DNA of 64,000 nt. It comes from a phage. Of this stretch, positions 5,997-33,082 are shown in pieces. A program made the position numbers and the translations under genes. The stretch is from NCBI GenBank assembly GCA_029366385.1, contig GCA_029366385.1_4540.1. One strand, written 5' to 3'. The notes below the pieces were generated by a model. It made no database searches. It saw nothing but the letters and a program-made list of their open reading frames with translations, and was not told where the DNA came from. Numbering within the stretch: position 1 is the stretch's first letter; every line of letters begins with the position of its first letter.

Positions 5997-6008
5997 TTGG
6001 TTCTCCTC

Positions 6009-13906: not shown

Positions 13907-15252
13907 ATGTATATACACATAAGCAAGATTTGGTAACAGCGGCAAACAATCGGGGCTTGTTCGATAGGCTTTGCAAAGCTATTGAAATTGCATATGGTTG
14001 GACTAAAGAGACAGATCCTAAACTTACAGGACAATATGCTCTTTTACACGGTTGCACAAATTTTCCATACGTCTGTCACACAGTCGGGACCAATGAATTT
14101 TCTGGAGAGCCGACAGTAGGAGATAATGAGCTACGTTTTACAGGAGATGCAATGCTAGATTTAATTCTTAAGAAAACTAAAATGTTAAAAATTGAAGATG
14201 TTTACACAGACACTGGTAACCTTTCTGAAGAAGAAATTGGAGAAATGATTACTACTTTCAATAATACAACAGGGAAGAGTTTTTGGACTAAAAGCGATGC
14301 TTCCCGTCTTAAACGAGTAGACCCTGCTATTCCAGAAGACGGTAAGAAGTATCGAAAAGTTATCTTTTACGATAAAATGGCAGGTCTGGATGCGCTGCAT
14401 CTTGAGTGTGGAAGCCTTGTGCCTCCGGCTGTCAGAGAACATGAATTTGCAGTTGAGGTTGAAGCACAGGAGTTTAAAGATATGTTTTATACTAAGCATG
14501 TAAGGAAAGTGGAAGATATGGAACAACAAAAAGAGACTTTTGAACCAGAAGACACAGAGCCTACCTATATTCCTAATACAGGTATTCAACCTTGTGAAGA
14601 CTTTGTTCAAGTCCGTTACAAAAATGGTGTTTTAGAAGTATGCAAAGCCAACCACTTTGAATGGGAGAAATACGATAGTGAATGGCAGATTGAAGAATAT
14701 TTTGTTCTCCCAAGAACAGCAAAATACCAAGCCCACATTGGAGGTAAACGCCCTTGTGATGGTCCTGTTGATGTTCTTTTTCGAAATGGGGACCAAGGAA
14801 AAGGTTTGTCGGCAGAGACGCTTTATTGGAGCCACTCTGGAGATGGATCAGACATTGTAGGTTATATTAAACTTAACCCGTCTCCACGTTACCGCAAGCG
14901 TCGTCAGAAGCCGCCAGTAGGTAAGAAGAGTGTCGTTCGTGTCCTCTACACTACACAACAGACCTACACATTTAAAAATGTGGTAGACGTGCAAGTGACT
15001 GAGGAGCGAGTTTATATCCAATATGATCGTGAAGTTACAGAGGGTATCAAAGAATCGGTTACTACCGAAATTGAAAATAAGCTTGTTATGGCGATCATTG
15101 TGGAAGAAAGTAAAGTAGAGAACGGTAAAGCCTACACTGTTCGTGATAGCTTCTTGCGTAATATCGATGGAACTTGGGATTATAATGGACATGATGGGAC
15201 CGCTGTAAAGAACGGTAAGATTATGGGAAGACAATTCCTCTCCAAACAATAA
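13903..15252 (+). CDS. Hypothetical protein
   Basis: 449-aa ORF; antisense track ORFs inside it judged spurious. Confidence 0.55.
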   Translation: MNVYTHKQDLVTAANNRGLFDRLCKAIEIAYGWTKETDPKLTGQYALLHGCTNFPYVCHTVGTNEFSGEPTVGDNELRFTGDAMLDLILKKTKMLKIEDVYTDTGNLSEEEIGEMITTFNNTTGKSFWTKSDASRLKRVDPAIPEDGKKYRKVIFYDKMAGLDALHLECGSLVPPAVREHEFAVEVEAQEFKDMFYTKHVRKVEDMEQQKETFEPEDTEPTYIPNTGIQPCEDFVQVRYKNGVLEVCKANHFEWEKYDSEWQIEEYFVLPRTAKYQAHIGGKRPCDGPVDVLFRNGDQGKGLSAETLYWSHSGDGSDIVGYIKLNPSPRYRKRRQKPPVGKKSVVRVLYTTQQTYTFKNVVDVQVTEERVYIQYDREVTEGIKESVTTEIENKLVMAIIVEESKVENGKAYTVRDSFLRNIDGTWDYNGHDGTAVKNGKIMGRQFLSKQ

Positions 15253-17854: not shown

Positions 17855-18460
17855 ATGCAACATAGTGTAGTAGTCAACATGCCGAACAGCGGAGATAAAT
17901 CTTTTGGTGTCCCTGCTAAAAAAGTGTGGAAAGCCCATTTTCATCTTACTTTATCTAACGTTAGTTCTGAAGAGTTGATGAAAGCAGCTAAGATTATTGG
18001 TGCCAAATGCACAACAATTGATTTACATCGGGATACAAAGTCTCAACGTGATCGTATGTTAACAAAGTATCAAAGCGATCTCGACACTACTTTAATGTTG
18101 CAATGTGTAGAAAAACTTGAGAATGCAGGTTTCAATGTTGTTCGTTACAAACTGGAACGAATGTTTAAACATGTTGCCTGTGTTCTTTTCATGGATCTAA
18201 GTAAAGAAAATTATGGAGAAGTTCACATTAAGACTTCAGCAAGTGATCCCGAAGTAGAAACAAACTTCTTCCGTATTTCTTCTAATGCTGAAGAAATTGA
18301 TTACCGATTTTATAATGCTCGCTTATATTCCGCAGAAGATAAGTTGCGTTTCAATGAAGCGTATGATATGCTCTTGAACAGTGGGATACAGATAAAAGGC
18401 TACCACATAGAACAAGTTGTGGTAGACAGTAACTTAAATCTTGATGCGTGGTGGGCCTAA
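17855..18460 (+). CDS. Hypothetical protein
   Basis: 201-aa ORF with RBS; contains HFHLTL but no second H-x-T/S motif. Confidence 0.5.
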   Translation: MQHSVVVNMPNSGDKSFGVPAKKVWKAHFHLTLSNVSSEELMKAAKIIGAKCTTIDLHRDTKSQRDRMLTKYQSDLDTTLMLQCVEKLENAGFNVVRYKLERMFKHVACVLFMDLSKENYGEVHIKTSASDPEVETNFFRISSNAEEIDYRFYNARLYSAEDKLRFNEAYDMLLNSGIQIKGYHIEQVVVDSNLNLDAWWA

Positions 18461-18461
18461 T

Positions 18462-19118
18462 ATGACAATAAAACATATCTCTTTTGATGTATGGAACACT
18501 CTTATTTCTGCCAATCAAAACTATGCAGATGCACGTACGCACACTATTGCGACATATGGTAGAATGTCTGAACGTGCCGCAAAAGAAGCATATAAAGATG
18601 CCAAAGAAATTATGGATAATGCTGCACTAAATGGGTGTGCAGAAGGTGTAGCATATGCATGGAATATGTTGGGAAGAAAAATAGGTTTAACCCCTGTAGA
18701 ATCTGCACAAATGCGTTTTGAGTGTGAACAATGGTTTCTTAAATTTCCTCCACATATTGCTTTAGATTTGCCAGTTTGTTTGCTATACTTGTCTGGTAAA
18801 TATGATCTTAGTATTAAAAGCAATACTAATTTTATATCTGGAGATATTTTGCGTCGTGCTTGCATGTTTGATAGTTGGAATTGTTTTGAATTTATGCATT
18901 TTTCAGACGAACATCTGTTGTGTAAACCAGATCCTAGATTCTTTGTTAGGACCGCCACATATTCAAGCATTCCTTTGAAGGCTGAAGAGATCTTACATGT
19001 TGGGGACAGCGAAGAATTTGATGGTAAATGTGTTGACATAGGGATTAACTTCTGTCATATTAAGAACCCTAACGATTTACTAGAGAAACTTAAAAGAGGA
19101 GAAATTGTAAATGCGTAA
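18462..19118 (+). CDS. HAD-superfamily-like hydrolase
   Basis: Track ORF 18441-19118 taken from ATG 18462; motif I-like ISFDVWNTL and motif IV-like LHVGDSEEFD. Confidence 0.45.
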   Translation: MTIKHISFDVWNTLISANQNYADARTHTIATYGRMSERAAKEAYKDAKEIMDNAALNGCAEGVAYAWNMLGRKIGLTPVESAQMRFECEQWFLKFPPHIALDLPVCLLYLSGKYDLSIKSNTNFISGDILRRACMFDSWNCFEFMHFSDEHLLCKPDPRFFVRTATYSSIPLKAEEILHVGDSEEFDGKCVDIGINFCHIKNPNDLLEKLKRGEIVNA

Positions 19119-19938
19119 TCAAACTCAAATTTTTGCAAATAAATTTGATGCCCTGGAAACTGCTACTTTTGATATCAAAGATTATTCAAAATTGAAATTT
19201 GGTAGTAACCAAGCTGCGCGTCGTATGGGTAAAGAATTGGCACTTCAGTTTTTTGCTCAAGTAGCAATGAAACATATTGGGGAACAATTTGTTATCATTC
19301 CTTCTCCTTATAACCATGTGCATAATGCTGCAACAATGATGACAGATCATTTTATTAATTACTTTAATATGTTACAAGCACAATATGATCAAGGTCGTTC
19401 AGCAGAACTGGATATTATTCATCGTAAAGTTAGCTATATCAACGATTATGGTTTCTTGGATAAAGCTAGTCGTAAGAAACTTATTGATGGGGATACATTC
19501 TACTGCAACAAAGAATTCTGGGGTGATAAGAAGCTTGTGTTCATTGATGATGTAAATATCACTGGAACTCATGAAGACAAACTGATTGAGATTCTTGATG
19601 AAAATCAAGTTAAAAATGATGTTTACTTCTTGTATTTTGCAAAATATGAAGGTAATCAAGCAGATACCGAAGCTAAGCTGAATTTTAACTATATTAATAC
19701 ACCAGAAGCGTTTGTTAAAATGATTAATGAAGAATGTGATGCACAGTGTCTTGTTCGTCCTATTAAGTATCTTATGGGCCAAAATCATGAAGACTTCAAA
19801 ATCATTCTTAGCCAATTGCCACACTACTATGTGGAACAACTTTTCTTCGGCTGTTTAGCTGAAGGCTACAATCGAATTGCAAAGTATGCTGAAAACTTTG
19901 AGTTCTTGGATCGTTACACAAAACAACATATTCTGTAA
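19111..19938 (+). CDS. Phosphoribosyltransferase (type I PRTase fold)
   Basis: 275 aa; PRPP-binding signature KKLVFIDDVNITGTHED. Confidence 0.55.
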   Translation: MRNQTQIFANKFDALETATFDIKDYSKLKFGSNQAARRMGKELALQFFAQVAMKHIGEQFVIIPSPYNHVHNAATMMTDHFINYFNMLQAQYDQGRSAELDIIHRKVSYINDYGFLDKASRKKLIDGDTFYCNKEFWGDKKLVFIDDVNITGTHEDKLIEILDENQVKNDVYFLYFAKYEGNQADTEAKLNFNYINTPEAFVKMINEECDAQCLVRPIKYLMGQNHEDFKIILSQLPHYYVEQLFFGCLAEGYNRIAKYAENFEFLDRYTKQHIL

Positions 19939-19947
19939 GGAGGAAAA

Positions 19948-20421
19948 ATGTTGAAGGTTGTTACTGGGAATCTGATCGATGCAGCGAAGAATGGGGAAGT
20001 GAACGTTATTGCTCATTGTTGCAATTGTATGTGTAATATGGGGGCAGGAATTGCTCCGCAAATTAAACGAGCATTCCCTTATGCATATGCGGCAGATTTA
20101 GACACAATGGCTGGTGATCAAAGTAAGTTAGGTTCTTTTAGTTTAGGGGTGCCAGACGAACAATCAGACCCTTTGGTATATAATCTATACGGGCAATACC
20201 GTTACGGATATAATGCTAAAGGTCGTCAGTTGGACTATGATGCCCTATACGATGCACTAATAGCTATGGCTAACGATTTGCTTCTCCGTGACCAAAAATG
20301 TAAGATCGGTTTACCTATGATTGGAGCGGGACATGCCGGAGGTAATTGGGCTATCATCCAAGTGATGATTGAAGAAACTTTAGTAAAAACAGGTCACGAT
20401 GTGACTATTTATAAACTTTAA
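19948..20421 (+). CDS. Macro-domain protein, TARG1/OARD1-like
   Basis: 157 aa; VIAHCCNCMCNMGAGIAPQIKRAFP aligns with human TARG1 [24 protein letters not shown], and IGLPMIGAG..VTIYKL with MPRIGCG..ITVYTL (recalled sequence). Confidence 0.75.
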   Translation: MLKVVTGNLIDAAKNGEVNVIAHCCNCMCNMGAGIAPQIKRAFPYAYAADLDTMAGDQSKLGSFSLGVPDEQSDPLVYNLYGQYRYGYNAKGRQLDYDALYDALIAMANDLLLRDQKCKIGLPMIGAGHAGGNWAIIQVMIEETLVKTGHDVTIYKL

Positions 20422-20433
20422 GAGGAGATTAGT

Positions 20434-20655
20434 ATGGGTGTTTTTGCAGGTATTGTTGCAGTGGTAAGCTTTTTTGTTATTGCTTTTATGCTTAGTTTGA
20501 TTCCAGCTTGGTTACTGTTGCTGGCTTACAACTATGTTGCTGAAGTTATGGGTCATGCAGATATCACTGTCCCAGTAACCTTCTGGACCGTGGTTTGTGT
20601 TTCGTTTATTCTGGCGGTATTACGAGGAATCTTTTCCTCTCATTCAACAAAATAA
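20434..20655 (+). CDS. Small membrane protein
   Basis: 73 aa, two hydrophobic segments. Confidence 0.45.
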   Translation: MGVFAGIVAVVSFFVIAFMLSLIPAWLLLLAYNYVAEVMGHADITVPVTFWTVVCVSFILAVLRGIFSSHSTK

Positions 20656-20658
20656 GTG

Positions 20659-20686
20659 TTGACATAGTTCTTAAAAAGAGTAAGAT
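20659..20686 (+). promoter_or_regulatory. Putative promoter TTGACA-N16-TAAGAT upstream of terC
   Basis: Same -35/-10 hexamers and spacing as the 6359 promoter. Confidence 0.45.
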
Positions 20687-20698
20687 ATATCACATGAA

Positions 20699-20717
20699 GC
20701 GGGGAATAGTTCCCCGC
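20699..20717 (+). promoter_or_regulatory. Leader stem-loop upstream of terC
   Basis: Perfect 8-bp stem GCGGGGAA / TTCCCCGC with loop TAG, between the -10 and the RBS GAGAGGAG. Confidence 0.35.
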
Positions 20718-20734
20718 AAAGAGAGGAGAAAAGA

Positions 20735-21709
20735 ATGCAACTCGGTTTCCCAATTATTGATGTAGTTGTTTTAGTTGGTATTTTAGCATTGTCTATTGGT
20801 ATCGATTTCTTTGGTCATAAAGAGAATAAAGAAATTGGAATTAAATCTGCTTTGCTTTGGTCTGTTTTTTGGATTGCTTTAGCTTTAGGATATTACGCAT
20901 TCATTTGGGTAGAACATGGTAAAGAGTTTGCCGCGCTTTTCCTAAGTGGCTATGTGTTGGAAAAGAGTCTTTCTGTAGATAACCTAATGGTGTTCATGGC
21001 AATTTTTGCAAGCTTTGGAATTAAGAGCACACATCTCCAACATAAGATTTTACTTTGGGGGATTGCAGGAGCCATTGTCTTCCGAGGTATTTTTGTTGCA
21101 GCAGGAACAGCTTTATTTAACCTGCATTGGTCGGTCCAAGTGCTGTTCGGTCTGATTGTAGCTTGGTCTGCCGTTGCTATTATCAAAGGTGGTGACGAAG
21201 AAGAGGATATCGATTACTCTAAACATTGGGCTGTTCGTTTAGTAGGTAAAATCCTGCCTGTGCACAATGCACTGGATGGTGAAAAGTTCATTACCATTAA
21301 GAATGGTATTAAATATGCAACTCCTGCTCTTCTTTGTGTGTTTGTTATTGAGCTTACAGATATTGTCTTCTCTTTTGATTCAGTTCCGGCTGTGATCGGT
21401 GTGACACAAGAACCTCTGCTAGTTTATTCTGCAATGCTGATGGCTGTTCTTGGTTTACGTGCACTTTTCTTTGTGTTAAGTGTAGCTGTGAAATATTTGG
21501 TTCACTTAGAGAAAGCTGTTGCTGTGGTTCTGGTGTTTGTTGGTGCTAAACTTATGTATCATCCGTTCGGTGAAACACTTCATGCCAAGTGGTCATTCCT
21601 CCCGCATGATATTTCCCCTAACGTAAGTCTGATGATTGTTCTAGGCACATTAGCTCTTGGTGTTATTGCAAGCTTTATCTTCCCTGAAAAAGAAGAAGCT
21701 ACTGTTTAA
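20735..21709 (+). CDS. terC: TerC-family integral membrane protein
   Basis: 324 aa, multiple TM helices; motifs EKSLSVDNLMVF and TDIVFSFDSVPAV. Confidence 0.8.
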   Translation: MQLGFPIIDVVVLVGILALSIGIDFFGHKENKEIGIKSALLWSVFWIALALGYYAFIWVEHGKEFAALFLSGYVLEKSLSVDNLMVFMAIFASFGIKSTHLQHKILLWGIAGAIVFRGIFVAAGTALFNLHWSVQVLFGLIVAWSAVAIIKGGDEEEDIDYSKHWAVRLVGKILPVHNALDGEKFITIKNGIKYATPALLCVFVIELTDIVFSFDSVPAVIGVTQEPLLVYSAMLMAVLGLRALFFVLSVAVKYLVHLEKAVAVVLVFVGAKLMYHPFGETLHAKWSFLPHDISPNVSLMIVLGTLALGVIASFIFPEKEEATV

Positions 21710-21715
21710 TAGATG

Positions 21716-21740
21716 AGCCTCCTTCGGGAGGCTATTTTAT
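21716..21740 (+). terminator. Rho-independent terminator (UUCG loop)
   Basis: Stem AGCCTCC / GGAGGCT, loop TTCG, then ATTTTAT. Confidence 0.55.
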
Positions 21741-21751
21741 AGGAGAGACTT

Positions 21752-22102
21752 ATGAGTAATTTTGATGAAATTCAAAAACTTGTTTGGGATTTACCTGGGG
21801 ATGTTGATTACGTTTCAGATTATCTTTCAAAAGTTTACCCTGGGGTAAGCGTTATGATTGTGACCAAAGATCCAATTAACCTTCCTCCTAACGTAGTAGC
21901 TTGTTGTGGAAGTGGTTCAGGAGAGGTAGAACCTGTATCTCGTTGGGAATTAACCAAAGCTGTTTCAAAACGAAACGGCGAAGTTTTGAATATTGATATC
22001 GAACAAATCTGGACTTCTCCAGCCGCCAAGTGGAATGATCCTAATGGTTGGGATTTGTTCTTCTGGGATAATGAAACTGATGATGAGGTATTTTTAAAAT
22101 GA
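21752..22102 (+). CDS. Hypothetical protein
   Basis: 116-aa ORF with AGGAGAG RBS. Confidence 0.5.
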   Translation: MSNFDEIQKLVWDLPGDVDYVSDYLSKVYPGVSVMIVTKDPINLPPNVVACCGSGSGEVEPVSRWELTKAVSKRNGEVLNIDIEQIWTSPAAKWNDPNGWDLFFWDNETDDEVFLK

Positions 22103-22344
22103 AATACTTGTTGGTTGTGTTTGAAAATATTTGTTTTGCAATAGGGTTGTTTGTTGTAATTTTTGTATTGACAAGCGTAATCAACGGCAGTAAAGTGAGT
22201 TTATACCGAGATGGAGAGCAACTTTATTGCTTCTCTGGAGATTTCAAACACAGATGTATTAATAGCCAAAACGAGGAAAGCAAATATGAAAAAACTAGCC
22301 CTGATTTTAATTGGTTGTATCTTTTTAACAGCTTGCGAGGATGA
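22099..22344 (+). CDS. Possible small membrane protein
   Basis: 81-aa ORF with ATGA overlap, but its 3' end overlaps the lipoprotein gene by about 59 nt. Confidence 0.3.
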   Translation: MKYLLVVFENICFAIGLFVVIFVLTSVINGSKVSLYRDGEQLYCFSGDFKHRCINSQNEESKYEKTSPDFNWLYLFNSLRG

Positions 22345-22723
22345 AACAAATCCCGCACAATACCAACAACCTCCTCAACAATACGCTCAACAAGGATCTG
22401 ACGGAGATACAACTATTATCAACAATGGTGGCGGTTCTAGTAGTAGCGGTGTTGGTGAGTTTGCTACAGGTATGTTGTTAGGGCATATGATGAGTGGCGG
22501 TAGTAATCGTAGCAGTGGGGATTATAACGATAACAGAACGATTATTAATAAGCATTATAATACACCTAAACCGAAAACTAATTTTTATGGTAAGCCTAAA
22601 CAAGAGATAAAAACTTATGAAAAGCCGAGACAAACTTTTAAAACAAATAGTAGCTATACAACTCGTAAATCTTACAATAGCCCTTTAAGTAAAAAGAGTT
22701 CATCTCGTAGCAAGCGACGTTAA
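22286..22723 (+). CDS. Putative lipoprotein (Gly/Ser-rich, basic C-terminus)
   Basis: Track ORF 22211-22723 taken from ATG 22286 after GAGGAAAG; lipobox-like LILIGCIFLTAC. Confidence 0.55.
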   Translation: MKKLALILIGCIFLTACEDETNPAQYQQPPQQYAQQGSDGDTTIINNGGGSSSSGVGEFATGMLLGHMMSGGSNRSSGDYNDNRTIINKHYNTPKPKTNFYGKPKQEIKTYEKPRQTFKTNSSYTTRKSYNSPLSKKSSSRSKRR

Positions 22724-22737
22724 TAAGGAGAAAAACA

Positions 22738-23331
22738 ATGACAATTTCTATTCGTACTTCCATCGTAGGTGTTAAAAGGTTGCCTAATGCTTTGCAAATC
22801 ACACGCGCTTTGAGGGATACATTCTCTGCTGTGGACGAGCATAAGATGCTTGATAATCTTTCAAATTGGCCCTATTTCCATTATTTTAAAAATGAAGATG
22901 ACGAGTTTATAGACGCTGTTTCTTATGGTTATGATTTCGGTAAGGAGGTTTCTGCTGAAGAATTTGTAGCTATGGTGTTCCCAAACGGTTTGCCTACTCG
23001 CAGTAAACGTAAAAAAGGACCAAAAAACAAGAAACGTGCTACTAATAAAGCTACCATTTTCTTTACTGATGGCACACAATATACTATTAAAGATTTTGAA
23101 GAGGTATCTTATACAGCAGGTGGGAATCTTTCTTTCTACACCATCAAAAAACAAAACTCTACGTTCAGCCATGTTTCTAACATGATTGAAATGTTAGTAG
23201 AAGATATTGAAAGCGTGGCTGTGTTAGGTATGCATAAAAGCTTTTTAATTACAAATATTTCAGATTTCAGTGCAAGTTTATCTGGCCCTGATTTTGAAGC
23301 CACGACCACGCATTTCGCTTTTAAGGTGTAA
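22738..23331 (+). CDS. Hypothetical protein
   Basis: 197-aa ORF. Confidence 0.5.
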   Translation: MTISIRTSIVGVKRLPNALQITRALRDTFSAVDEHKMLDNLSNWPYFHYFKNEDDEFIDAVSYGYDFGKEVSAEEFVAMVFPNGLPTRSKRKKGPKNKKRATNKATIFFTDGTQYTIKDFEEVSYTAGGNLSFYTIKKQNSTFSHVSNMIEMLVEDIESVAVLGMHKSFLITNISDFSASLSGPDFEATTTHFAFKV

Positions 23332-23334
23332 GTT

Positions 23335-23925
23335 ATGCATACCGAGAGAGACTTGCAACTCTTGTGGTGGGAAGTGATGCAGGAAATAAAAGAAGATTTT
23401 CCTGTTTACTACAACATGTTACATGAAGCAGGATATAAAGCTTGTGTTAGAAACAAAGTGAATAACTCTTTCGGTTGGTGCAACTACCGAGATAAAATTG
23501 TTGTTGTAAATTGGCACTTGCATAAGAACTCCACAAGAGATATGATCGTGGATACAATGAAGCACGAAATTGCTCATGCTATTGATGGTTGTATGGGTAA
23601 GTTTAGTAGACACGGTGCTCATTGGCAAAAACTGGCAGCAGAGTTAGGGGCTAATCCTAAAGCCACTTCCAAAGAGCCGTTGAACCACGAATATAAATAT
23701 GTTCTTGTTCTGGTAGATAGGTTTGCGACAAGATGTGTTAGAGGTTATAATCGTAAACCTAATCGCATGTACCCAGGTAAGCAACCTAATATGTGGTTGA
23801 AATCAGATAAAGAAGGGACCGAAGGAAAATTATGGTTGTATAAATGGGACGATTGGGTTAAAGTAGCTAAAGAGTACGGTGTTTCACCATATATAAGAGA
23901 TGCAGAAGAGGAGAATGAAGAATGA
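23335..23925 (+). CDS. SprT-like zinc metallopeptidase domain protein
   Basis: 196 aa; HEIAHAI (HExxH) followed by HGAHWQ. Confidence 0.6.
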   Translation: MHTERDLQLLWWEVMQEIKEDFPVYYNMLHEAGYKACVRNKVNNSFGWCNYRDKIVVVNWHLHKNSTRDMIVDTMKHEIAHAIDGCMGKFSRHGAHWQKLAAELGANPKATSKEPLNHEYKYVLVLVDRFATRCVRGYNRKPNRMYPGKQPNMWLKSDKEGTEGKLWLYKWDDWVKVAKEYGVSPYIRDAEEENEE

Positions 23926-25034
23926 CAAGTCCATTTTTAAAAGCAGCTACTGGCGGTCAGAAGAAACCTGAAATGAGCGTATTTGCTGCAACAACAGATG
24001 CAAGTAAATCTGTATTCGCTCCAAGCGTGTTAGATGCCAGTCCTGTTTATGCACCAGCGGCACCGCAAGAAGTTCCAGTTTTGCCTTCTATGACCCGACA
24101 AGAGATCGAAGAGATTGGGGCAGAGGCAGGAACAACCTTGCGTTCCTTGAATGCCGAGGTATTAAAACATCAACGTAGTAATCAAGGCGATCAGATGAGT
24201 GAACGACTCACAGCTTTGATTAAACAGGCAAAACAACTTGATCCAAACTCTATTAAACAAAGCAAGGGTATTACTAAACTCATTAAAAAAGTTATGGGTA
24301 TGAAAGAAGATCTGTTTGGGGAGTTTGATAATGTTAATAACCGTATTGAAGAGTTGGTAAAAAACCTTCAAATGGATATTCGCAAAGAAGAAGATTCCTT
24401 GGTATATCTTGAAAAGCTACATCAAGCTATTGGACAATATGCTGCAAGTTTGAACCGAGATATGCAGCTTCTAACAGCAACCTATGAAAAAGAAGAACAA
24501 GCTTTGGCTGCTCTTCCAGAAGATGCAGTAGAACAGCGACAAGTGATCCGAGACACTTTGGATCTTCTGGAGATTCGTATTGCAGATTTAAAAGCATTGC
24601 GCCTACTGTGTGTCCAAATGGGACCGCGTGTACAAGGTATGCAAAAAGTTTCTGCAAGCTTAATGCGATCTGCGCGTAACATAGTAAATAATGTTATTCC
24701 TGCTTACTCTGCTAACTTCTCAATGTATATCGAGAGCTTACGTCAAATGAAAGCAGCAGAGACGCAGAATAACGTTCTTGATGAATTTAACCTAGCAATT
24801 AAACTGGGTAGCGATCTTGCCACACAGAATCAGATCGAAGCAGCAGCACTGGCTAACCGTCAAGTGTTGGATATTGAAACTCTGCGTCACGATCAGGAAA
24901 ACTTGGTTAAGATGTTGGAAGAAACTAACCGCATCAATACGGAAGCCCGTGCTGCTCGTGTTGATTATATTAATGAAGTTCAATCTCTGGAAGACGGGAT
25001 GGTAGCTGCTGTGAAACGAGGGCTTGGTAAATGA
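23922..25034 (+). CDS. Putative TelA-like (toxic anion resistance family) protein
   Basis: 370 aa, long helical protein; resemblance to TelA is from recalled pattern only. Confidence 0.4.
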   Translation: MTSPFLKAATGGQKKPEMSVFAATTDASKSVFAPSVLDASPVYAPAAPQEVPVLPSMTRQEIEEIGAEAGTTLRSLNAEVLKHQRSNQGDQMSERLTALIKQAKQLDPNSIKQSKGITKLIKKVMGMKEDLFGEFDNVNNRIEELVKNLQMDIRKEEDSLVYLEKLHQAIGQYAASLNRDMQLLTATYEKEEQALAALPEDAVEQRQVIRDTLDLLEIRIADLKALRLLCVQMGPRVQGMQKVSASLMRSARNIVNNVIPAYSANFSMYIESLRQMKAAETQNNVLDEFNLAIKLGSDLATQNQIEAAALANRQVLDIETLRHDQENLVKMLEETNRINTEARAARVDYINEVQSLEDGMVAAVKRGLGK

Positions 25035-25228
25035 GAATCCGTATCTATATAATTGATGAGGACATTGGTGTCCGTTATGATGACGAAAAACGATTCGCGC
25101 CGATGGGAGGCATATATCCCCCAAGTGTTCTAGCAGTTTGTCGTGATTGTTATATTTATGAAGGTTGTCGTAACTTCCGTAAATTCGAACTCCTTGCAGA
25201 TATTGACTTCAATGAGGAGGAGGAGTAA
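25031..25228 (+). CDS. Hypothetical protein
   Basis: 65-aa ORF. Confidence 0.4.
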   Translation: MRIRIYIIDEDIGVRYDDEKRFAPMGGIYPPSVLAVCRDCYIYEGCRNFRKFELLADIDFNEEEE

Positions 25229-25401
25229 TGAAAATATTACGAGTGAATATTGAAACTGCTTGGTGTGGATGCAATGAGGTTGTGGATATCGAAATTGAAG
25301 ATGATATGTCTCAAGAGGATATAGAAGATCTTGCACACGAAACCTTTCAGGACTATTGTAATTACGGGTTCCATATTTTAGAGGAGGAAGAGGATGTTTA
25401 A
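25228..25401 (+). CDS. Small acidic protein (57 aa)
   Basis: Unlisted ORF; TAATG overlap upstream, overlaps next start. Confidence 0.4.
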   Translation: MKILRVNIETAWCGCNEVVDIEIEDDMSQEDIEDLAHETFQDYCNYGFHILEEEEDV

Positions 25402-25597
25402 CTACGATAACGACCCTAATATTATCCAGTTAACCCGACAAGAACTGATCACAATCATTGAAGATGCTTTTATTGATGGCTGGAATACACAAGACAATGA
25501 TTGGGGTGGACCCGAAGCTTTTCTGGAACATCATAAAGCTTATGGAGAATTTTGTGAAACCACTGTAGCTCTTGATAATCTGAAGGAGGGTTTGTAA
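25394..25597 (+). CDS. Hypothetical protein
   Basis: 67-aa ORF. Confidence 0.45.
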   Translation: MFNYDNDPNIIQLTRQELITIIEDAFIDGWNTQDNDWGGPEAFLEHHKAYGEFCETTVALDNLKEGL

Positions 25598-26160
25598 TGG
25601 GTTGTTTTAGCTTTTTGTGCAAAGAATCGGGCAAAGCTGCCCTTTCTACTTCTTTCGACGGATCACCTTGTTATCTCTTTCTTTTGAAGGACGGTGTTGT
25701 TATTGAAGAGATGTATGGCAACTATGATAGTTATGGTTGTGTTTTCTCTGGAAAGGAGGATGAAAATGGCGTTCGTGAAAGGTTCGAATGGGCTATGGAT
25801 TGGGGTAAGGTTTGTGATTTAATGCATTCCTCAAATCCAAGGGACGGTATTGCTATGGTGCTGGAAGAGTACTTTACAGGTGAAATCCCTACAGAACAAT
25901 CTGACGGAGATCCTAACCAAGGTTGGGGTGATGGTGAAGAAGATCCAGATTGTTTTTTCAGCACAGAAAAGAATAAGTTTAAACGTGTTGACAACCCTTA
26001 TCACAAAGTGCATAATACTCTCATTGAAACAGAAGATGACAAGATGGAAATTGAAGAAGATGATCCTCTTGTAACACTTCCTATAAGTGAGTTACAAAAG
26101 ATCACTAAGGAAGCTTACGATTTGGGCTTCAAAATTGGTAGAGGAGGTATGCGTGTTTAG
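25597..26160 (+). CDS. Hypothetical acidic protein
   Basis: 187-aa ORF. Confidence 0.5.
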   Translation: MGCFSFLCKESGKAALSTSFDGSPCYLFLLKDGVVIEEMYGNYDSYGCVFSGKEDENGVRERFEWAMDWGKVCDLMHSSNPRDGIAMVLEEYFTGEIPTEQSDGDPNQGWGDGEEDPDCFFSTEKNKFKRVDNPYHKVHNTLIETEDDKMEIEEDDPLVTLPISELQKITKEAYDLGFKIGRGGMRV

Positions 26161-26431
26161 ATTCAATATTCAAGAAGAAAAGTATCAAGATTTACCTATT
26201 GCTTTCGAAGATCTTGGCATAGGGGCCACATTCATGTATTATGATGCCTATGAAGACGCAGGGTTGGATACCTACCGTAACTTGGTGTTCATTAAAAATT
26301 CCACAAACAGTGCGATCTGTATTAATGGATCACTAGCACAACGAGGCTATACTCATTGCATCCCGCCAGATACAAATATGGTGGAAGTAGATTTAGAAGT
26401 TACCAATATTACACTTAAGAAGGAGAAATAA
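26153..26431 (+). CDS. Small protein, paralog A of 27453-27722
   Basis: Track ORF 26087-26431 taken from GTG 26153 after GAGGAGG; shares F-I-E.K...I.DL..G.TF.Y..A.....LD ... EV.L.VT.ITLK with 27453-27722. Confidence 0.5.
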   Translation: MFRFNIQEEKYQDLPIAFEDLGIGATFMYYDAYEDAGLDTYRNLVFIKNSTNSAICINGSLAQRGYTHCIPPDTNMVEVDLEVTNITLKKEK

Positions 26432-26432
26432 T

Positions 26433-27227
26433 ATGTCCGAGAAAATCAGCCTGAAAAAACGTCAAGAAAACCTTGCTTTCTCTCTGAAAAAGAATAAGAA
26501 CCTGAATGAAGGTAAGATTGTTCTTCGTGTAGCATGTGCTCTAGATATTTCTGGTAGTATGCATGGTCTATATTCTAGTGGGGTAGTAAGTGATTTTGTA
26601 GGTAAACTGCTTCCTTTTGGTATGTTGTTCGACGATAATGAACAAATTGACATGTGGGCCTTCAATACGAGTTCTCAAGAGCTTACTCCAGCAACAGCAG
26701 ACGTTTACGATGACTATGTTGGTAAATGTATGCGTAATATTCGTATTGGAGGTGGAACAAATTACGCCCCTGTAATGGCAGATATCTACGATGAGTATTT
26801 TGGCACTGTTACCAAATATGTTACCACTAAACAAGTGGTACAAGAGGAGGCTCCAAAGAAAGGCTTCTTTAATCGTCTGCTTGGTAAAACTGAAACAGTA
26901 TCTGTAGAGCGTGAAAAGGTTGTAGCTGTATCTGAACCAGGTGCTGACGTTACCCCTGGTGTTGTATTCTTCCAGACGGATGGTGAGAATGGTGATCCTA
27001 GTGCTGTTCGTCGTCTTATTGAAGAGAATAAGAATAAGCCTATCTATTGGTTCATGGTTGGCGTTGGTAATGAGAAGTTCAGCTTCCTGAAAGAACTGGC
27101 AAATGCTTATGATAATGTTGGTTTTATTGGCATTAAAGATTTAGACTTGACAGATTCAGAGCTTTATGACAAACTCTTATCTGAAGAGTTCGGAGAGTGG
27201 GTTGTTAAAGTAGGTGCTAAAAAATGA
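26433..27227 (+). CDS. von Willebrand factor A (vWA) domain protein, TerY-like, with TerD-like N-terminal segment
   Basis: 264 aa; MIDAS-type ALDISGSM; N-terminus MSEKISLKK resembles the TerD N-terminus. Confidence 0.65.
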   Translation: MSEKISLKKRQENLAFSLKKNKNLNEGKIVLRVACALDISGSMHGLYSSGVVSDFVGKLLPFGMLFDDNEQIDMWAFNTSSQELTPATADVYDDYVGKCMRNIRIGGGTNYAPVMADIYDEYFGTVTKYVTTKQVVQEEAPKKGFFNRLLGKTETVSVEREKVVAVSEPGADVTPGVVFFQTDGENGDPSAVRRLIEENKNKPIYWFMVGVGNEKFSFLKELANAYDNVGFIGIKDLDLTDSELYDKLLSEEFGEWVVKVGAKK

Positions 27228-27472
27228 TCGACGAGCTTGCCTCTCAAGTCGTAGAAAATTATTGGCGCGAGAGAGAAGCTTTCATTATGCGCAGTCTCAA
27301 AGAATATTTCATTGGGACTGTGCGGATGGAAGATATTGTAAGTAGAGTAGAGATTCATGTATGGCCTGATTATGAAGAATGGGTTGACAAAGAAAATGAA
27401 AATGCTATAATTCTTCGTATATACAAACCGGAGATAACATTAGGAGGAAGAAGTGTTAAACTTCGAAATTGA
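27224..27472 (+). CDS. Hypothetical protein
   Basis: 82-aa ORF. Confidence 0.45.
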   Translation: MIDELASQVVENYWREREAFIMRSLKEYFIGTVRMEDIVSRVEIHVWPDYEEWVDKENENAIILRIYKPEITLGGRSVKLRN

Positions 27473-27722
27473 TGAGCAAAAAATAAATAAACGATGCCTT
27501 ACCATTAAAGATTTGGATGTAGGAGATACTTTCGTCTATGAAAATGCATTTGACGAAAATGGTTTAGACCTTAGTGAAGTCATTGTTTATTTAAAAGTAG
27601 ATGATGGGGAAAATGATTATTCTGCTGTAGAACTAAACCATCATGCACAATTAGTAGCAATCCAAAACACATCTAAGCTTTTGGAAGTAGAATTGACTGT
27701 AACTGGTATTACACTTAAATAA
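27453..27722 (+). CDS. Small protein, paralog B of 26153-26431
   Basis: 89 aa, GTG start after AGGAGG. Confidence 0.5.
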   Translation: MLNFEIDEQKINKRCLTIKDLDVGDTFVYENAFDENGLDLSEVIVYLKVDDGENDYSAVELNHHAQLVAIQNTSKLLEVELTVTGITLK

Positions 27723-27737
27723 TAGAGGAGACAAAAG

Positions 27738-28340
27738 ATGACTGATAAAATTTCCCTGAAAAAAGGCTCTAGCGAAAAAATTTCCCTGAAGAAAGTTGCT
27801 CCGGCTCTGAAAGAACTGCGCCTGGAATTCTCTTGGAAATCTGATTCTAAACTGGATCTGGATGTAAGTGCACTGGTTTGTCGTCACAATGCCGCTGGCA
27901 ATCCGGAAATGCTGTCTGCACGTCATCTGGTTTGCTATGCTAACAAGTTTGATCCTGAACGTTCTACCTTCGCTGGTGACGATGTTCGTGATGGAACTGG
28001 CAGCATGGAGCAGATTGATATTACTCTGGCTAAAATCTCTCCTGATGCACAAGAGATTGCCTTTGTTCTGACCATTGATGATGATACAGGTCTGAAACGT
28101 TTTGGTCATGCTTCTGAAGGTATGCTTAAAATCTTCGACTCCGAGCGCAATGTGGAAATTCTGGATTTTGACTTCCTGGCTCCTGAAGTAGCTGGCAACA
28201 CAATCTGCCACGTGGCTTCCTTGGTTCGTGAAGATGGGGAATGGAAACTGAAAGCATATGGTGTAGGTAAAGCTGGTCTGGATATTTGCGATGTGGTGAT
28301 GGCCTTCGGTGGTAAAAAAGAATGGTATGAATGTCCATAA
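27738..28340 (+). CDS. terD: TerD-domain stress protein
   Basis: 200 aa; aligns by eye with enterobacterial TerD (ISLKKG..ISLKK, FVLTIDD, DGEWKLKAYGVGKAGL); CTG/CGT/GGT-rich codon usage. Confidence 0.85.
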   Translation: MTDKISLKKGSSEKISLKKVAPALKELRLEFSWKSDSKLDLDVSALVCRHNAAGNPEMLSARHLVCYANKFDPERSTFAGDDVRDGTGSMEQIDITLAKISPDAQEIAFVLTIDDDTGLKRFGHASEGMLKIFDSERNVEILDFDFLAPEVAGNTICHVASLVREDGEWKLKAYGVGKAGLDICDVVMAFGGKKEWYECP

Positions 28341-28436: not shown

Positions 28437-28958
28437 TTGCTGATAAAAAACTTTGTAACAGTTGCGTTACTATCCTTAACTGCTTTTACATTTACACCTG
28501 TTGTGGCGAAAGCCGAAGCTGCAAACGTAAAAACCGCTAAAGTAGTTCACAAATGTACAAAGCAATATAATGATAAAATTCTATTAGCTTGTGCAATTTA
28601 CGCAGAAGGTCGCGGTCTGGGTAAAAAAGGAATGAATGCCGTTGGGAATGTGGTAATCAACAGAAGAAATGATGCCTACTTCCCTAACACAGTCAAGGGA
28701 GTCTTGTTCCAGAAAGGGCAATTCTCATATGCGAAAACTTTTAACGTGACAGAGAAAGATAAATGGCAGGAAGCAAAAGCAATAGCGGAGCGTTTACTTT
28801 ATTTAGAGAAACATTTTCCTGAATTGCGGTCTGTTTTAGATGTTACTAAAGGTGCTCTATACTTCAAGAAACGGAATATAAGGACACACTGGGAGCGTGA
28901 TATGCGTCTTGTTTATCGAGATAAAGTGCATGGTTTCTATCTACCAAAGGGGAGTTAA
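28437..28958 (+). CDS. Secreted SleB/CwlJ-type cell-wall hydrolase
   Basis: 173 aa, TTG start after AAGGAGG; signal peptide; CAIYAEGRG..GMNAVGNVVINRR..FPNTVKGVLFQKGQFS matches the SleB-type hydrolase pattern. Confidence 0.6.
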   Translation: MLIKNFVTVALLSLTAFTFTPVVAKAEAANVKTAKVVHKCTKQYNDKILLACAIYAEGRGLGKKGMNAVGNVVINRRNDAYFPNTVKGVLFQKGQFSYAKTFNVTEKDKWQEAKAIAERLLYLEKHFPELRSVLDVTKGALYFKKRNIRTHWERDMRLVYRDKVHGFYLPKGS

Positions 28959-29659: not shown

Positions 29660-30223
29660 ATGATTTATTATATTACTCCCTATCTGACAGGAAATATCGG
29701 CAAGGCTATCAATGAAGCTATTGCCGTTCTTCCAGATGATAGTTGGGTGTGCTTAAGAGATACCGATACAATGTTCCTCCTGCCTGATCAACCATCTATG
29801 CTTGAAGAGCTTGTTATGTCAAACCCGCCTTTTGATGTAATAGGTGCAACTTGTAACAGGTTAGGTAGTGGTTATCAGCTTTTCTCTAACCAAATTAACG
29901 ATGATCCAGATATTCTAAACCATATAGAATATGCTAAGATTGCAAGAGAATATCATAAAGTGAGTGTTGAAGAAGTTCCTTTCGGAACACCTCTGGCAGG
30001 TTTCTTTTTGCTTTTTAGAAAATCATTGTGGAATGAAATTCCTTTCGAAGAAAAATCTATCCAATTCGACTTAATTTTCTCTCGCACTTTACATGAAAAA
30101 GGAAAGAGGTTAGGATTGATGCGGGGAATGTATCTGTTTCACATTTACAGATTAGGTCAAACAAATCCTCAACGGTCTATACATCATTTATTACACTGTC
30201 ACGATCACAGTAAAACTATTTAG
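29660..30223 (+). CDS. Putative glycosyltransferase (GT-A-like)
   Basis: 187 aa; N-terminal ITPYLTGNIGKAINEAIAVL ... CLRDTDTMF resembles GT-A nucleotide-sugar binding region. Confidence 0.4.
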   Translation: MIYYITPYLTGNIGKAINEAIAVLPDDSWVCLRDTDTMFLLPDQPSMLEELVMSNPPFDVIGATCNRLGSGYQLFSNQINDDPDILNHIEYAKIAREYHKVSVEEVPFGTPLAGFFLLFRKSLWNEIPFEEKSIQFDLIFSRTLHEKGKRLGLMRGMYLFHIYRLGQTNPQRSIHHLLHCHDHSKTI

Positions 30224-30231
30224 GAGAGAAA

Positions 30232-30915
30232 ATGGAAAATATTAAAATCGGAGTGGGTGTTATCACTGTAGGTGTCCGTCCACTTAAAGACTACCTTGTA
30301 ACAGATCCACATGCAGATTTTCGAGTATTCAACGATCCAGATCGTAAAGGTGTAGCTTACGCCAGGAATGAACTTATGCACCAGTTTTATGAAGAAGGTT
30401 ATGATTATTGGTTTATTTTTGACGACGATTGCTACCCAATCATGGAGGGATGGGAAACATATTTTGTAGATCAAGCTGTCTCTGGAGGATGGGATTTCTT
30501 TGGTATGCCGGAGTATTTCAAAGATAAAGTTGTTGGGAGTAAAGGAGAAGTTATTCTCTGGGAACTTGCAATGTGTCAATTTGCAATGTATTCTCGTGCC
30601 GTTGTTGAGAAGATGGGTTATTTCCGCCCTTACACTCACGGCTATGGTTTTGAAGATGCTGAATGGGTACACCGTTTGAAAGCTGCTGGTTTGAATCAGG
30701 GCATTCAGGCAATACCTTGTCCACTTCGTATCATGGCTTATATCCACCCAGACGATGTTTTTGGAAACAATCTTATGCCTTTTGCTAATCTGACAAAAGA
30801 AGAGAAAGAAGTTGCTATTGGCATTAACTGGGAAGAATATAAAGCGTCTTTAGAAGATATTAAAAATGGGAAAATCCGAATTTCTTATGAGGAGGCACTG
30901 GCACATGTCAAATAA
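30232..30915 (+). CDS. Glycosyltransferase family 2-like
   Basis: 227 aa; GVGVITVG ... GVAYARN ... YWFIFDDDCYP (DxD). Confidence 0.55.
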   Translation: MENIKIGVGVITVGVRPLKDYLVTDPHADFRVFNDPDRKGVAYARNELMHQFYEEGYDYWFIFDDDCYPIMEGWETYFVDQAVSGGWDFFGMPEYFKDKVVGSKGEVILWELAMCQFAMYSRAVVEKMGYFRPYTHGYGFEDAEWVHRLKAAGLNQGIQAIPCPLRIMAYIHPDDVFGNNLMPFANLTKEEKEVAIGINWEEYKASLEDIKNGKIRISYEEALAHVK

Positions 30916-31852
30916 AAAATGGACTAAACTGAAAATTGATGCAAAACCTCACAGTGGTTGTGATTATCATCGTATTGTTATACCATTTAACAACAATAAT
31001 TTTCAGCCTAAGAAAGATGTTGTCGTGTTTAACCGTATTCATTCTAAAGGGGCAGAATATGTTCTGTCCCTGAAACGTCAAGGTGTTAAGATTGTTGTAG
31101 ATTTAGATGATTTCTACCAACTTAATCCAGAACATTATTTAGCAAGTTTATATGAGTCAAACACTCATGCTATTGTAGCTATGGTTAAGCTTGCCGATGT
31201 GGTCATTGTGACTACGGAATATTTGGCATATAAGATCCGTCACTTAAATAGGAATGTTGTTGTGATCCGAAATGCACTTCCTTTTGATAGCGGACAATTC
31301 ACTTTGTCAAATGATCGTTCATCCGGTACCCCTGTTGTATGGGCTGGCGGTGCTAGTCACGAACCCGATTTACGACTAGTCTCTAATACTTTCGATGATG
31401 AACTTCTTACTATTGCAGGATATGAAGCATCGCAGAGTATCACAGGGCAAGAGTGGATTAAGATCCGTAGAAATTTACCAAACGCCAAATATAAAGCTGC
31501 TGTAAAAGATTTAGATAATTACATGAGTGTTTACGAAAGTCATGCTATTGCTATAGCTCCTTTGGTAGACAATGATTTTAATAATTGTAAAAGTAATCTC
31601 AAAATCCTTGAAGCTGGGGCAAAAGGTATTCCGATTGTTTGTTCTAAGGTATTACCTTATTTTAACCCTGTAGATGCTCGCGCTGTTGCTTACGCAGAGA
31701 ATAAAGCTGAATGGCATTACGAAATTGTTAAGCTTCTTCGCAATCCGAACTATCGGGAAGATCGCGGCTTGTTCTTAGCGGAACATGTTCGAACACATTA
31801 TAATCTGGCAGATGCAAACGAATTGCGACGCCAGGTTATTGAAAGTTTGTAG
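30905..31852 (+). CDS. Putative glycosyltransferase (GT-B-like), paralog of 31860-32804
   Basis: Track ORF 30866-31852 taken from ATG 30905 after GAGGAGG; KSNLKILEAGAKGIPIV. Confidence 0.5.
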   Translation: MSNKKWTKLKIDAKPHSGCDYHRIVIPFNNNNFQPKKDVVVFNRIHSKGAEYVLSLKRQGVKIVVDLDDFYQLNPEHYLASLYESNTHAIVAMVKLADVVIVTTEYLAYKIRHLNRNVVVIRNALPFDSGQFTLSNDRSSGTPVVWAGGASHEPDLRLVSNTFDDELLTIAGYEASQSITGQEWIKIRRNLPNAKYKAAVKDLDNYMSVYESHAIAIAPLVDNDFNNCKSNLKILEAGAKGIPIVCSKVLPYFNPVDARAVAYAENKAEWHYEIVKLLRNPNYREDRGLFLAEHVRTHYNLADANELRRQVIESL

Positions 31853-31859
31853 GTGAAGT

Positions 31860-32804: not shown

Positions 32805-33082
32805 TGATTAACACTTTTGATTTTGAATACACCACTCGTAACGGGAAAGCCTTGGTCGTGGAGGTGGATTACTATTATGAAGAACCTAATCCACTTTCTC
32901 GTGAAAGCGATTGGGATTACCACGGAGGGCTTTTAATTGACGGTATTCGTTTTTATGAAGGATCTACAGAAGTTTTTGAAAAAGATTTAAATATAACTGT
33001 AGCAGAAATTGCTTTCCAATTTAGAAAGCACATGGAAGAACTAGAAGCAGAATATATGATGGAGACTAACGAACCATTTTAA
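32804..33082 (+). CDS. Hypothetical protein
   Basis: 92-aa ORF. Confidence 0.5.
   Translation: MINTFDFEYTTRNGKALVVEVDYYYEEPNPLSRESDWDYHGGLLIDGIRFYEGSTEVFEKDLNITVAEIAFQFRKHMEELEAEYMMETNEPF

Follow-up and report, generated by a model that had tools for sequence, protein, structure and literature searches.

A gene block best explained as an abbreviated Ter stress system in a virulent phAPEC8-like phage of Escherichia coli

Why would a virulent phage carry genes of the kind that make up bacterial tellurite-resistance-type (Ter) loci, and what could they do there? Ter loci are widespread in bacteria and have been tied to the fitness of pathogens. The question is raised by a run of open reading frames (ORFs) at positions 18462-28340 of a 64,000-nucleotide stretch of phage DNA (contig GCA_029366385.1_4540.1, here called the window), which comes from a virulent, phAPEC8-like Phapecoctavirus of Escherichia coli. 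An initial annotation, made from the sequence alone, saw here a Ter-type module linked to a phosphoribosyltransferase (PRTase) and a HAD hydrolase, all in one orientation. That reading is sound. Every ORF of the block lies on the + strand, with the boundaries unchanged, and the domain calls at all eight ORFs were borne out by Pfam and other profiles, the HAD call being the weakest. Six strong Ter-family matches within 10 kb cannot be due to chance, and the best explanation of the block is an abbreviated Ter membrane stress system in a virulent Phapecoctavirus. Its six-gene viral core is as follows.

18462..19118, +, HAD-superfamily (IA-like) hydrolase (PF00702 at 1.2e-3, under the cutoff; called from motifs and from its adjacency to PRTase_3)
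19111..19938, +, PRTase_3 (ComF-like), a type I phosphoribosyltransferase (PF15610, E 4.4e-41)
20735..21709, +, TerC/Alx-family integral membrane protein, putative divalent-metal transporter (PF03741, 3.6e-40)
23922..25034, +, TelA, toxic anion resistance family (PF05816, 3.2e-33, residues 59-361)
26433..27227, +, stand-alone vWA protein of the TerF C-terminal type (PF10138, 4.6e-37)
27738..28340, +, TerD-domain protein, single copy (PF02342, 3.2e-28)

The TerC protein scored 319 bits against the NCBIfam TerC/Alx model TIGR03718 (cutoff, 246) and conserves the DN/DS motifs LEKSLSVDNL and FSFDSVP. TelA, which had been called only tentatively, is in fact a strong match to its family. Its AlphaFold2 (AF2) model is of moderate quality (predicted local distance difference test [pLDDT] 74.7, predicted TM-score 0.46) and all-helical, with very long helices and about 55 disordered N-terminal amino acids (aa). 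Foldseek found nothing in the PDB at E<=1e-3 with this model, and the TelA sequence had no significant PDB match either; the weak Foldseek matches were to long-helix bundles, such as ClyA-family toxins and BAR domains, and we do not take them as evidence for pore formation. In the vWA protein, the metal ion-dependent adhesion site (MIDAS) is intact (DISGS ... T ... D), and its residues are conserved in 13 phage homologs. It had been described as vWA/TerY-like; the vWA part of that description holds, and the TerY part gives way to TerF, the type that PF10138 represents. The TerD protein matches the Klebsiella TerD structure 2KXT at 1.5e-15 and is 100% identical in many Phapecoctavirus genomes (tblastn). 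Its Ca2+-binding motif is partly degenerate, reading GDDVRDGTGSME in place of GDNRTGEGDGDDE; this degeneration is confined to the subfamily Stephanstirmvirinae, and other phage TerD proteins keep GDNxTGxGxGDDE.

The two enzymes of the core differ in how easily they are recognized. The PRTase_3 protein has an intact phosphoribosyl pyrophosphate (PRPP) loop (DDVNITGTH), and the loop DDVxITGTH, with residues D146, D147, T151, G152 and T153, is invariant in 26 PRTase_3 homologs. Its AF2 model (pLDDT 92.5) shows a type I PRTase core with a C-terminal helical extension; the closest PDB folds are 6-oxopurine PRTases and ComF, and a sequence search of the PDB returned no significant match. For the HAD protein, the NCBIfam HAD-IA models also gave sub-threshold matches, and the protein likely belongs to the superfamily, judging from the nucleophile Asp and motifs II-IV, which are conserved in at least 80% of 24 homologs. 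Motif I reads D-V-W-N-T-L here and D-x-W-x-T-L in the family, so that the DxDx(T/V) form of HAD phosphatases, with Asp+2 as general acid/base, is absent; the Trp in its place is conserved in at least 80% of the same 24 homologs and was seen in homologs from loci L002-L028 of our comparison. This hints at a chemistry that may differ from that of standard phosphatases.

To delimit the core we rely on phage phi92, of the sister genus Justusliebigvirus, and on metagenomic viral contigs. The gene order of phi92 is the same as in the window: HAD, PRTase, macro domain, small membrane protein, TerC, transmembrane ORF, lipoprotein, an unassigned ORF, TelA, a small ORF, a 187-aa ORF, a phrog_11278 ORF, vWA, TerD and endolysin. 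The most conserved proteins of the block are TerD (81% amino acid identity) and TelA (79%), followed by the 187-aa ORF (76%), TerC (71%), vWA (66%) and PRTase (65%). Missing from phi92 are the SprT-like gene, the 116-aa, 65-aa and 82-aa ORFs, the DUF7167 ORF, the second phrog_11278 copy and the ORF at 17855-18460. Because the comparison with phi92 and the viral contigs shows linkage through rearrangement, we place TerC, TelA, TerD, vWA, HAD and PRTase_3 in the viral core; the SprT-like gene and several small ORFs are lineage-specific passengers, and the macro domain and the lipoprotein are subfamily-specific neighbors. All six core genes are intact and under strong purifying selection, with ratios of nonsynonymous to synonymous substitution rates (dN/dS; dS is saturated) of 0.035 to 0.15 overall: 0.10-0.14 for TerC, 0.035-0.087 for TelA, 0.15 for vWA, 0.05-0.13 for TerD and 0.06-0.08 for PRTase_3.

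Are the two enzymes really part of the Ter set? We gathered 27 PRTase_3 loci, taken from rhizobial plasmids, phage records and contigs of IMG/VR and metagenome assemblies, and searched them with iterated profiles built from the window proteins. The HAD gene lies directly 5' of PRTase_3 in 27 of 27 loci, with one small ORF between them in L027. Outside Stephanstirmvirinae, Ter genes are found within 10 kb of the pair in L009, L010, L018, L022, L023, L024 and L027, and the arrangement of the pair relative to TerC, TelA, TerD and vWA takes at least five different forms, in several unrelated viral lineages. Among these orders are the following.

TerC-TelA-TerD-X-vWA-HAD-PRTase
TelA-vWA-...-TerC-like (DUF475)-...-HAD-PRTase-TerD
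TelA-HAD-PRTase-vWA-...-TerD
TerC-vWA-TerD-TerD-TelA-HAD-PRTase

That the linkage survives rearrangement speaks for a functional connection of the PRTase-HAD pair with the Ter genes. The proposed link of the pair to ter genes is thus upheld by several shuffled lineages, with the restriction that it is frequent and not obligatory. The family of linked PRTase_3 and HAD proteins seems to be carried mainly by phages. We suggest that the pair in Stephanstirmvirinae be annotated as Ter-associated, in place of "orotate phosphoribosyltransferase" and "hydrolase." A different setting was observed in XaC1-type T4-like jumbo phages (L003 13941-15527; L011 10967-12562), in which HAD-PRTase_3 is followed by a 530-aa DUF2828/DUF7788 protein, with an RNA ligase and a weak 2H-SAK match nearby; these loci suggest an RNA-repair-like setting for the pair.

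A Ter set in a phage had been considered unexpected by the initial annotation, and this view is not supported: the arrangement is conserved and annotated across the subfamily, and phage Ter systems are already known. The block is 98.3% identical to that of Escherichia phage ESCO13 (Phapecoctavirus, Stephanstirmvirinae) and 97.7% identical to that of ZCKP1; 105 phage records match it, 63 of which hold at least 80% of its length. In RefSeq/GenBank, relatives bear the labels "tellurite resistance," "tellurium resistance protein," "integral membrane protein TerC," "TerE," "TelA-like," "TerD family protein," "macro domain-containing protein" and "putative orotate phosphoribosyltransferase." Several "Campylobacter phage" records (MG065650, MG065645 and others), one named Acinetobacter phage and one named Pseudomonas phage hold proteins nearly identical to those of E. 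coli Phapecoctavirus/Justusliebigvirus, which suggests mislabeling or contamination behind these host names.

In the literature, the ZCKP1 paper counts four tellurite-resistance-related genes, without mention of the PRTase_3-HAD pair, and suggests that they make the cell resistant to colicins and prevent superinfection. Iyer, Anantharaman, Krishnan, Burroughs and Aravind (2021) described phage Ter systems that include PRTase and HAD and proposed a role against superinfecting phages. Their examples include Acinetobacter phage vB_AbaM_ME3 and the Caulobacter jumbo phages, and they mention "certain other related smaller tailed phages" without naming phAPEC8 or phi92. TerC, TerD, the TerF-type vWA and TelA are common to their systems and the block, and ME3 also has PRTase and HAD. 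The Stephanstirmvirinae, which at about 150 kb are not jumbo phages and go unnamed in that survey, differ from the described phage systems in the degenerate Ca2+ motif of TerD and in extra lineage-specific ORFs. Other published cases are ΦKp34, ΦPsa374, PMBT3 (terB), XaC1 and tciABC of P1. The finding reveals no new kind of system, and what we add is incremental: the six-gene viral core with its varied orders, the atypical HAD motif, the degenerate TerD motif and the separation of passengers from core.

How far is the block abbreviated? The enterobacterial terZABCDEF type (IncHI2/R478) was compared by way of the Klebsiella plasmid pS245-2, in which the locus consists of terW, DUF4236, HpcH lyase, StiP, PRTase, ATP-grasp, terZ, A, B, C, D, E, an insertion sequence (IS)-disrupted terF and HAD. 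Identity to the phage proteins is 47% for TerC (tblastn, L030), 31% for TerD (to TerE) and 28-33% for the vWA protein (to the vWA domain of TerF). Genes for a PRTase and a HAD are found in both; we rejected the phage enzymes as orthologs of those of the enterobacterial locus, since they show no BLAST similarity and the phage PRTase belongs to the PRTase_3 family. TerB, the TerZ/A/E paralogs, TerW, ATP-grasp, the HpcH-type lyase, StiP and DUF4236 are found only in the plasmid locus and TelA only in the phage. Other bacterial sets are KilA-TelA-TelB of plasmid RK2 and the yceCDEFGH operon of Bacillus subtilis (three TerD, TerC and TelA). The phage combination of TelA, TerC and TerD without TerB resembles that of such operons; they are bacterial or plasmid borne, not viral, and to our knowledge they hold neither a PRTase_3-HAD pair nor a stand-alone TerF-type vWA. 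No ORF of the block matched TerB, and no such annotation appears in the inspected parts of the ESCO13 genome; Pfam searches of the block likewise detected no ATP-grasp amidoligase or TIM-barrel lyase of the biosynthetic module. Measured against the broad definition of Ter systems (Anantharaman/Iyer/Aravind), the block has TerD, TerC, TelA, a TerF/TerY-type vWA with MIDAS and the linked PRTase and HAD, and lacks TerB, ATP-grasp and the TIM-barrel lyase. The classical terZABCDEF set (TerZ, A, D, E and F paralogs with TerB and TerC) is not what the block carries, as it has one TerD, no TerB and a stand-alone vWA.

The one-directional arm that contains the block begins near window position 6000, at a switch in GC skew. 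A helicase, class I ribonucleotide reductase genes, nrdD and nrdG lie 5' of the block, and the endolysin, four glycosyltransferases, a primase/helicase and a DNA polymerase lie 3' of it. The expression signals, which are consensus matches only, and the gene that follows terD are as follows.

20659..20686, +, sigma-70-like promoter, TTGACA-16-TAAGAT, in the gap 5' of terC
21716..21733, +, terminator-like GC-rich hairpin with a T-rich tail, directly 3' of terC
27384..27411, +, perfect sigma-70 promoter consensus, TTGACA-16-TG-TATAAT, 42 nucleotides 5' of the phrog_11278b-terD pair
28437-28958, +, SleB/Hydrolase_2-like endolysin, the next gene after terD, with the N-terminal hydrophobic signal-like segment MLIKNFVTVALLSLTAFTFTPVVAKA

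In phi92 (L002), the promoter-like site before terC has a counterpart at the equivalent position (15047-15074), another such site lies directly before terD (21050-21077), and a third precedes the endolysin gene. The adjacency of terD and endolysin is kept in phi92, with a conserved promoter-like site 5' of the endolysin gene, and in L024 an endolysin is also found near the cassette; the signal-like segment suggests that the enzyme may be exported ahead of lysis. After the endolysin, four successive glycosyltransferase genes (29660-33000, +) are present, as in ESCO13 and phi92; according to the ZCKP1 authors, such surface-modifying enzymes may impede superinfection.

Next to the PRTase_3 gene, at 19948..20421 (+), lies a stand-alone macro domain of 157 aa that belongs to the TARG1/DarG/SCO6735 clade (Pfam Macro 7.9e-5, barely above the gathering score). 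This adjacency is conserved only within Stephanstirmvirinae, and in phi92 its counterpart is the C-terminal part of gp185 (49% identity). The PADLOC DarG model matches at 7e-11, and the NCBIfam DarG model matches as well; the matches to DarG models cover only the N-terminal half (model positions 1-147 of ~330; 37.6 bits, with a cutoff of 250). PDB matches were SCO6735, BT1257, DarG (5m31, 1e-7) and TARG1 (2e-6), with entry 5e3b matched at 8.6e-13, so that macro fold and sequence similarity are common to the phage ORF and this clade. The protein had been called TARG1-like. A macro domain it is, with TARG1 among its matches, but its alignment, with a "GQ..." and a "GAGHAGG" motif, is nearer to the SCO6735/BT1257 subgroup in which these are typical. 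The Lys and Asp that we take to be catalytic in TARG1 do not stand at those positions in the phage alignment. As for a DarG antitoxin, neither the C-terminal DarT-binding domain nor an adjacent darT was found, and there is no DarT-like neighbor at the block. In Otagovirus phiPsa347 (L006, 772-11470), a macro ORF 40% identical to that of the window lies beside genes annotated as NAMPT and ribose-phosphate pyrophosphokinase (Prs), and TelA, vWA and TerD are just ~3 kb away from it.

On the other side of the pair, directly 5' of the HAD gene, a 201-aa ORF (17855-18460, +) gave full-length matches to two PADLOC "AbiEi" antitoxin models (4.7e-13 and 4.4e-12), with no match in Pfam, NCBIfam or the PDB. 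It is present in Phapecoctavirus and absent from phi92, and could be a phage-borne antitoxin mimic against AbiE. Its candidacy as a 2H phosphoesterase partnering the macro domain was dropped, as a single HxT motif is visible and no profile supports it.

What, then, might the cassette do? We tentatively propose, with a probability of about 0.4, that the phage expresses a Ter membrane complex, tuned by the product of PRTase-HAD, that would make the infected cell refractory to injection by later phages and to pore-forming colicins. After infection, terC and terD would be transcribed from host-type promoters. TerC would insert in the inner membrane as a divalent-metal transporter, and TerD, the MIDAS-containing vWA protein and the long-helical TelA may assemble at its cytoplasmic face. 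PRTase_3 would couple PRPP with a base-like nucleophile, and the HAD enzyme would process the product into a riboside or nucleotide-like ligand for the Ter complex. The envelope of the infected cell would then resist second insults that breach or depolarize the inner membrane, such as DNA injection by superinfecting phages or pore-forming colicins, and the outcome would be superinfection exclusion, with the ongoing infection protected up to its scheduled lysis.

We arrive at exclusion and colicin resistance because of bacterial ter genetics, the linkage and selection data and the neighboring surface-modification genes. In bacteria, phage inhibition and colicin resistance are lost when terC, terD or terZ carries an insertion, and deletion of Klebsiella terC gives larger plaques as well as Zn and Mn sensitivity (PMC12054061). 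The predicted functional residues (PRPP loop, HAD nucleophile Asp and motifs II-IV, vWA MIDAS, TerC DN/DS motifs) are intact, the putative promoters before terC and terD stand at conserved positions in two genera, and the endolysin and four glycosyltransferases follow the block; Iyer et al. (2021) and the authors of the ZCKP1 paper have proposed the same function. Several points weigh against this proposal. The phage inhibition conferred by bacterial Ter is modest, seen in plaque size, and the efficiency of plating changed for 1 of 8 phages (PMC12054061). TerB and TerZ, to which genetic work in bacteria has linked the phenotypes, are missing from the block, as are the ATP-grasp and lyase of the bacterial biosynthetic module. 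The Ca2+ motif of TerD is degenerate in Stephanstirmvirinae, and the HAD protein lacks the Asp+2 general acid, so that a simple phosphatase step is only putative. The Ter proteins of the block matched no PADLOC defense model, and our literature searches found no experiment on any phage Ter gene. A CRISPR interference (CRISPRi) screen found tciABC of P1 to be nonessential, which is compatible with an accessory role but does not point to any particular one. Finally, the PRTase_3-HAD pair is often found with no Ter gene within 10 kb, in many phages, viral contigs and two rhizobial plasmids.

A bolder version, which we consider doubtful, is that the six-gene cassette is a self-contained minimal Ter machine, in which the PRTase_3-HAD ligand gates a TerC-TerD-vWA-TelA membrane complex that blocks competing phages and colicins. 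Six retained genes under strong purifying selection do point to a minimal functional Ter core, and this core offers a tractable coliphage model for phage and colicin exclusion, for an effect on membrane potential and for the PRTase-HAD product. If the minimal machine is real and the pair is mainly phage borne, genetics in a virulent coliphage of 150 kb would be the simplest way to decide Ter function.

The absence of a competitor from the picture would give a different account, to which we attach an appreciable but clearly minor probability: the cassette would serve the phage itself, by keeping divalent metals in balance and the membrane potential steady. TerC would export Mn, Zn or Ca, TerD and vWA would buffer or sense the metal, and TelA would stabilize the membrane, so that energy-dependent replication is sustained and early triggering of an exported endolysin is prevented. 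The TerC/Alx family, to which TerC belongs, is one of metal homeostasis, and the Zn and Mn sensitivity of the Klebsiella terC mutant (PMC12054061) fits this account. A SleB-type endolysin with a signal-like segment lies next to the cassette here and in phi92, and near it in L024, in which a SPFH/Band_7 membrane-scaffold gene also adjoins the cassette. This adjacency is, however, mainly a feature of one subfamily, we found no evidence here for metal dependence of this class of lysin, and the small-molecule link of PRTase-HAD to the Ter genes is left unexplained. That same link speaks against mere juxtaposition, in which HAD-PRTase_3, with or without the macro domain, would be an independent nucleotide, NAD or ADP-ribose auxiliary or counter-defense pathway that happens to sit beside a separate Ter set in an accessory-gene arm. 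The pair does lack Ter genes within 10 kb in XaC1 (with TelA and TerD elsewhere in the genome), Rhizobium phages, CcrColossus (with TerD ~28 kb away), several IMG/VR contigs and the rhizobial plasmids. Its neighbors in other genomes include NMNAT/Nudix, PnuC with a NadR-like AAA_28 protein, and a cytidylyltransferase-like enzyme; in the window it directly follows nrdD and nrdG, the Otagovirus macro domain lies by NAMPT and Prs, and terC is flanked by a promoter-like site and a terminator-like hairpin of its own. Still, at least five gene orders have the pair within a set of TerC, TelA, TerD and vWA or immediately next to it, and as ±10 kb amounts to only ~6-13% of genomes of 150-350 kb, repeated independent co-location by chance would be unlikely. 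Iyer et al. (2021) also link PRTase and HAD enzymes to Ter, and we see only a small chance for an independent pathway.

The chance is similarly small that host immunity is countered by the Ter proteins, by the small-molecule product of the cassette or by the DarG/TARG1-like macro domain. The targets could then be the Ter system of the host, abortive-infection effectors that disrupt membranes, toxins that ADP-ribosylate, or NAD depletion. The matches of the macro domain to DarG-type ADP-ribosyl glycohydrolase models and the full-length AbiEi match just 5' of the block would fit such a function, as would the NAD-salvage genes found as neighbors in other phages; with TerC 47% identical to its enterobacterial counterpart, mixed complexes are conceivable. 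Nevertheless, the macro and AbiEi-like genes are not kept with the Ter core outside the subfamily, the macro domain lacks the C-terminal half of DarG and resembles the SCO6735/BT1257 subgroup by alignment, and a ter locus is not expected in K-12 or in most of the other laboratory strains on which these phages grow. Least of all do we expect the cassette to be a classical auxiliary set that gives the host cell resistance to tellurite or heavy metals, as the "tellurite resistance" and "tellurium resistance protein" names of relatives imply and as the XaC1 paper suggested for TerD. A virulent phage has no lasting host to protect, the block is missing TerB and most of the genes needed for bacterial tellurite resistance, and the authors of ΦPsa374, which has the same incomplete gene set, consider tellurium resistance unlikely.

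The remaining ORFs of the block that we could characterize are the following.

20434..20655, +, small hydrophobic protein of 73 aa (60% identity in phi92)
22099..22344, +, 81-aa ORF with an N-terminal transmembrane segment (weakly conserved in phi92, 49%)
22283..22723, +, 146-aa lipoprotein, overlapping the 81-aa ORF (weakly conserved in phi92, 36% by tblastn)
23335..23925, +, SprT-like zinc metalloprotease (PF10263, 5e-9; HEIAH motif)
25597..26160, +, conserved 187-aa Cys-containing protein (Stephanstirmvirinae only; 120 phage records)
26156..26431, +, phrog_11278 small protein, directly 5' of the vWA gene
27453..27722, +, second phrog_11278 paralog, directly 5' of terD

The N terminus of the 146-aa protein, MKKLALILIGCIFLTAC, carries a lipobox as read from the sequence, which makes the lipoprotein call plausible, and a signal peptide is annotated in phi92 gp180. 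Both envelope ORFs (22099-22723) are accessory, and their membership in the Ter system is putative. The SprT-like ORF has the SprT domain together with HExxH; it is absent from phi92 (L002), L013, L014 and L017 and present in L015 and L016. The initial annotation had this peptidase and the lipoprotein interleaved with the Ter genes, and the peptidase call is confirmed and the lipoprotein call plausible; they do not extend to the core, as phi92 has no SprT-like gene and only a weakly conserved lipoprotein. A relaxed Pfam search of the block's unassigned ORFs returned nothing, and for the 187-aa ORF a PDB sequence search gave no match either. This ORF is as conserved as the Ter proteins (dN/dS 0.12) and is a candidate lineage-specific Ter partner. 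Of the two phrog_11278 paralogs, phi92 keeps just the one that precedes vWA; a role as adaptors or chaperones is conceivable for these proteins.

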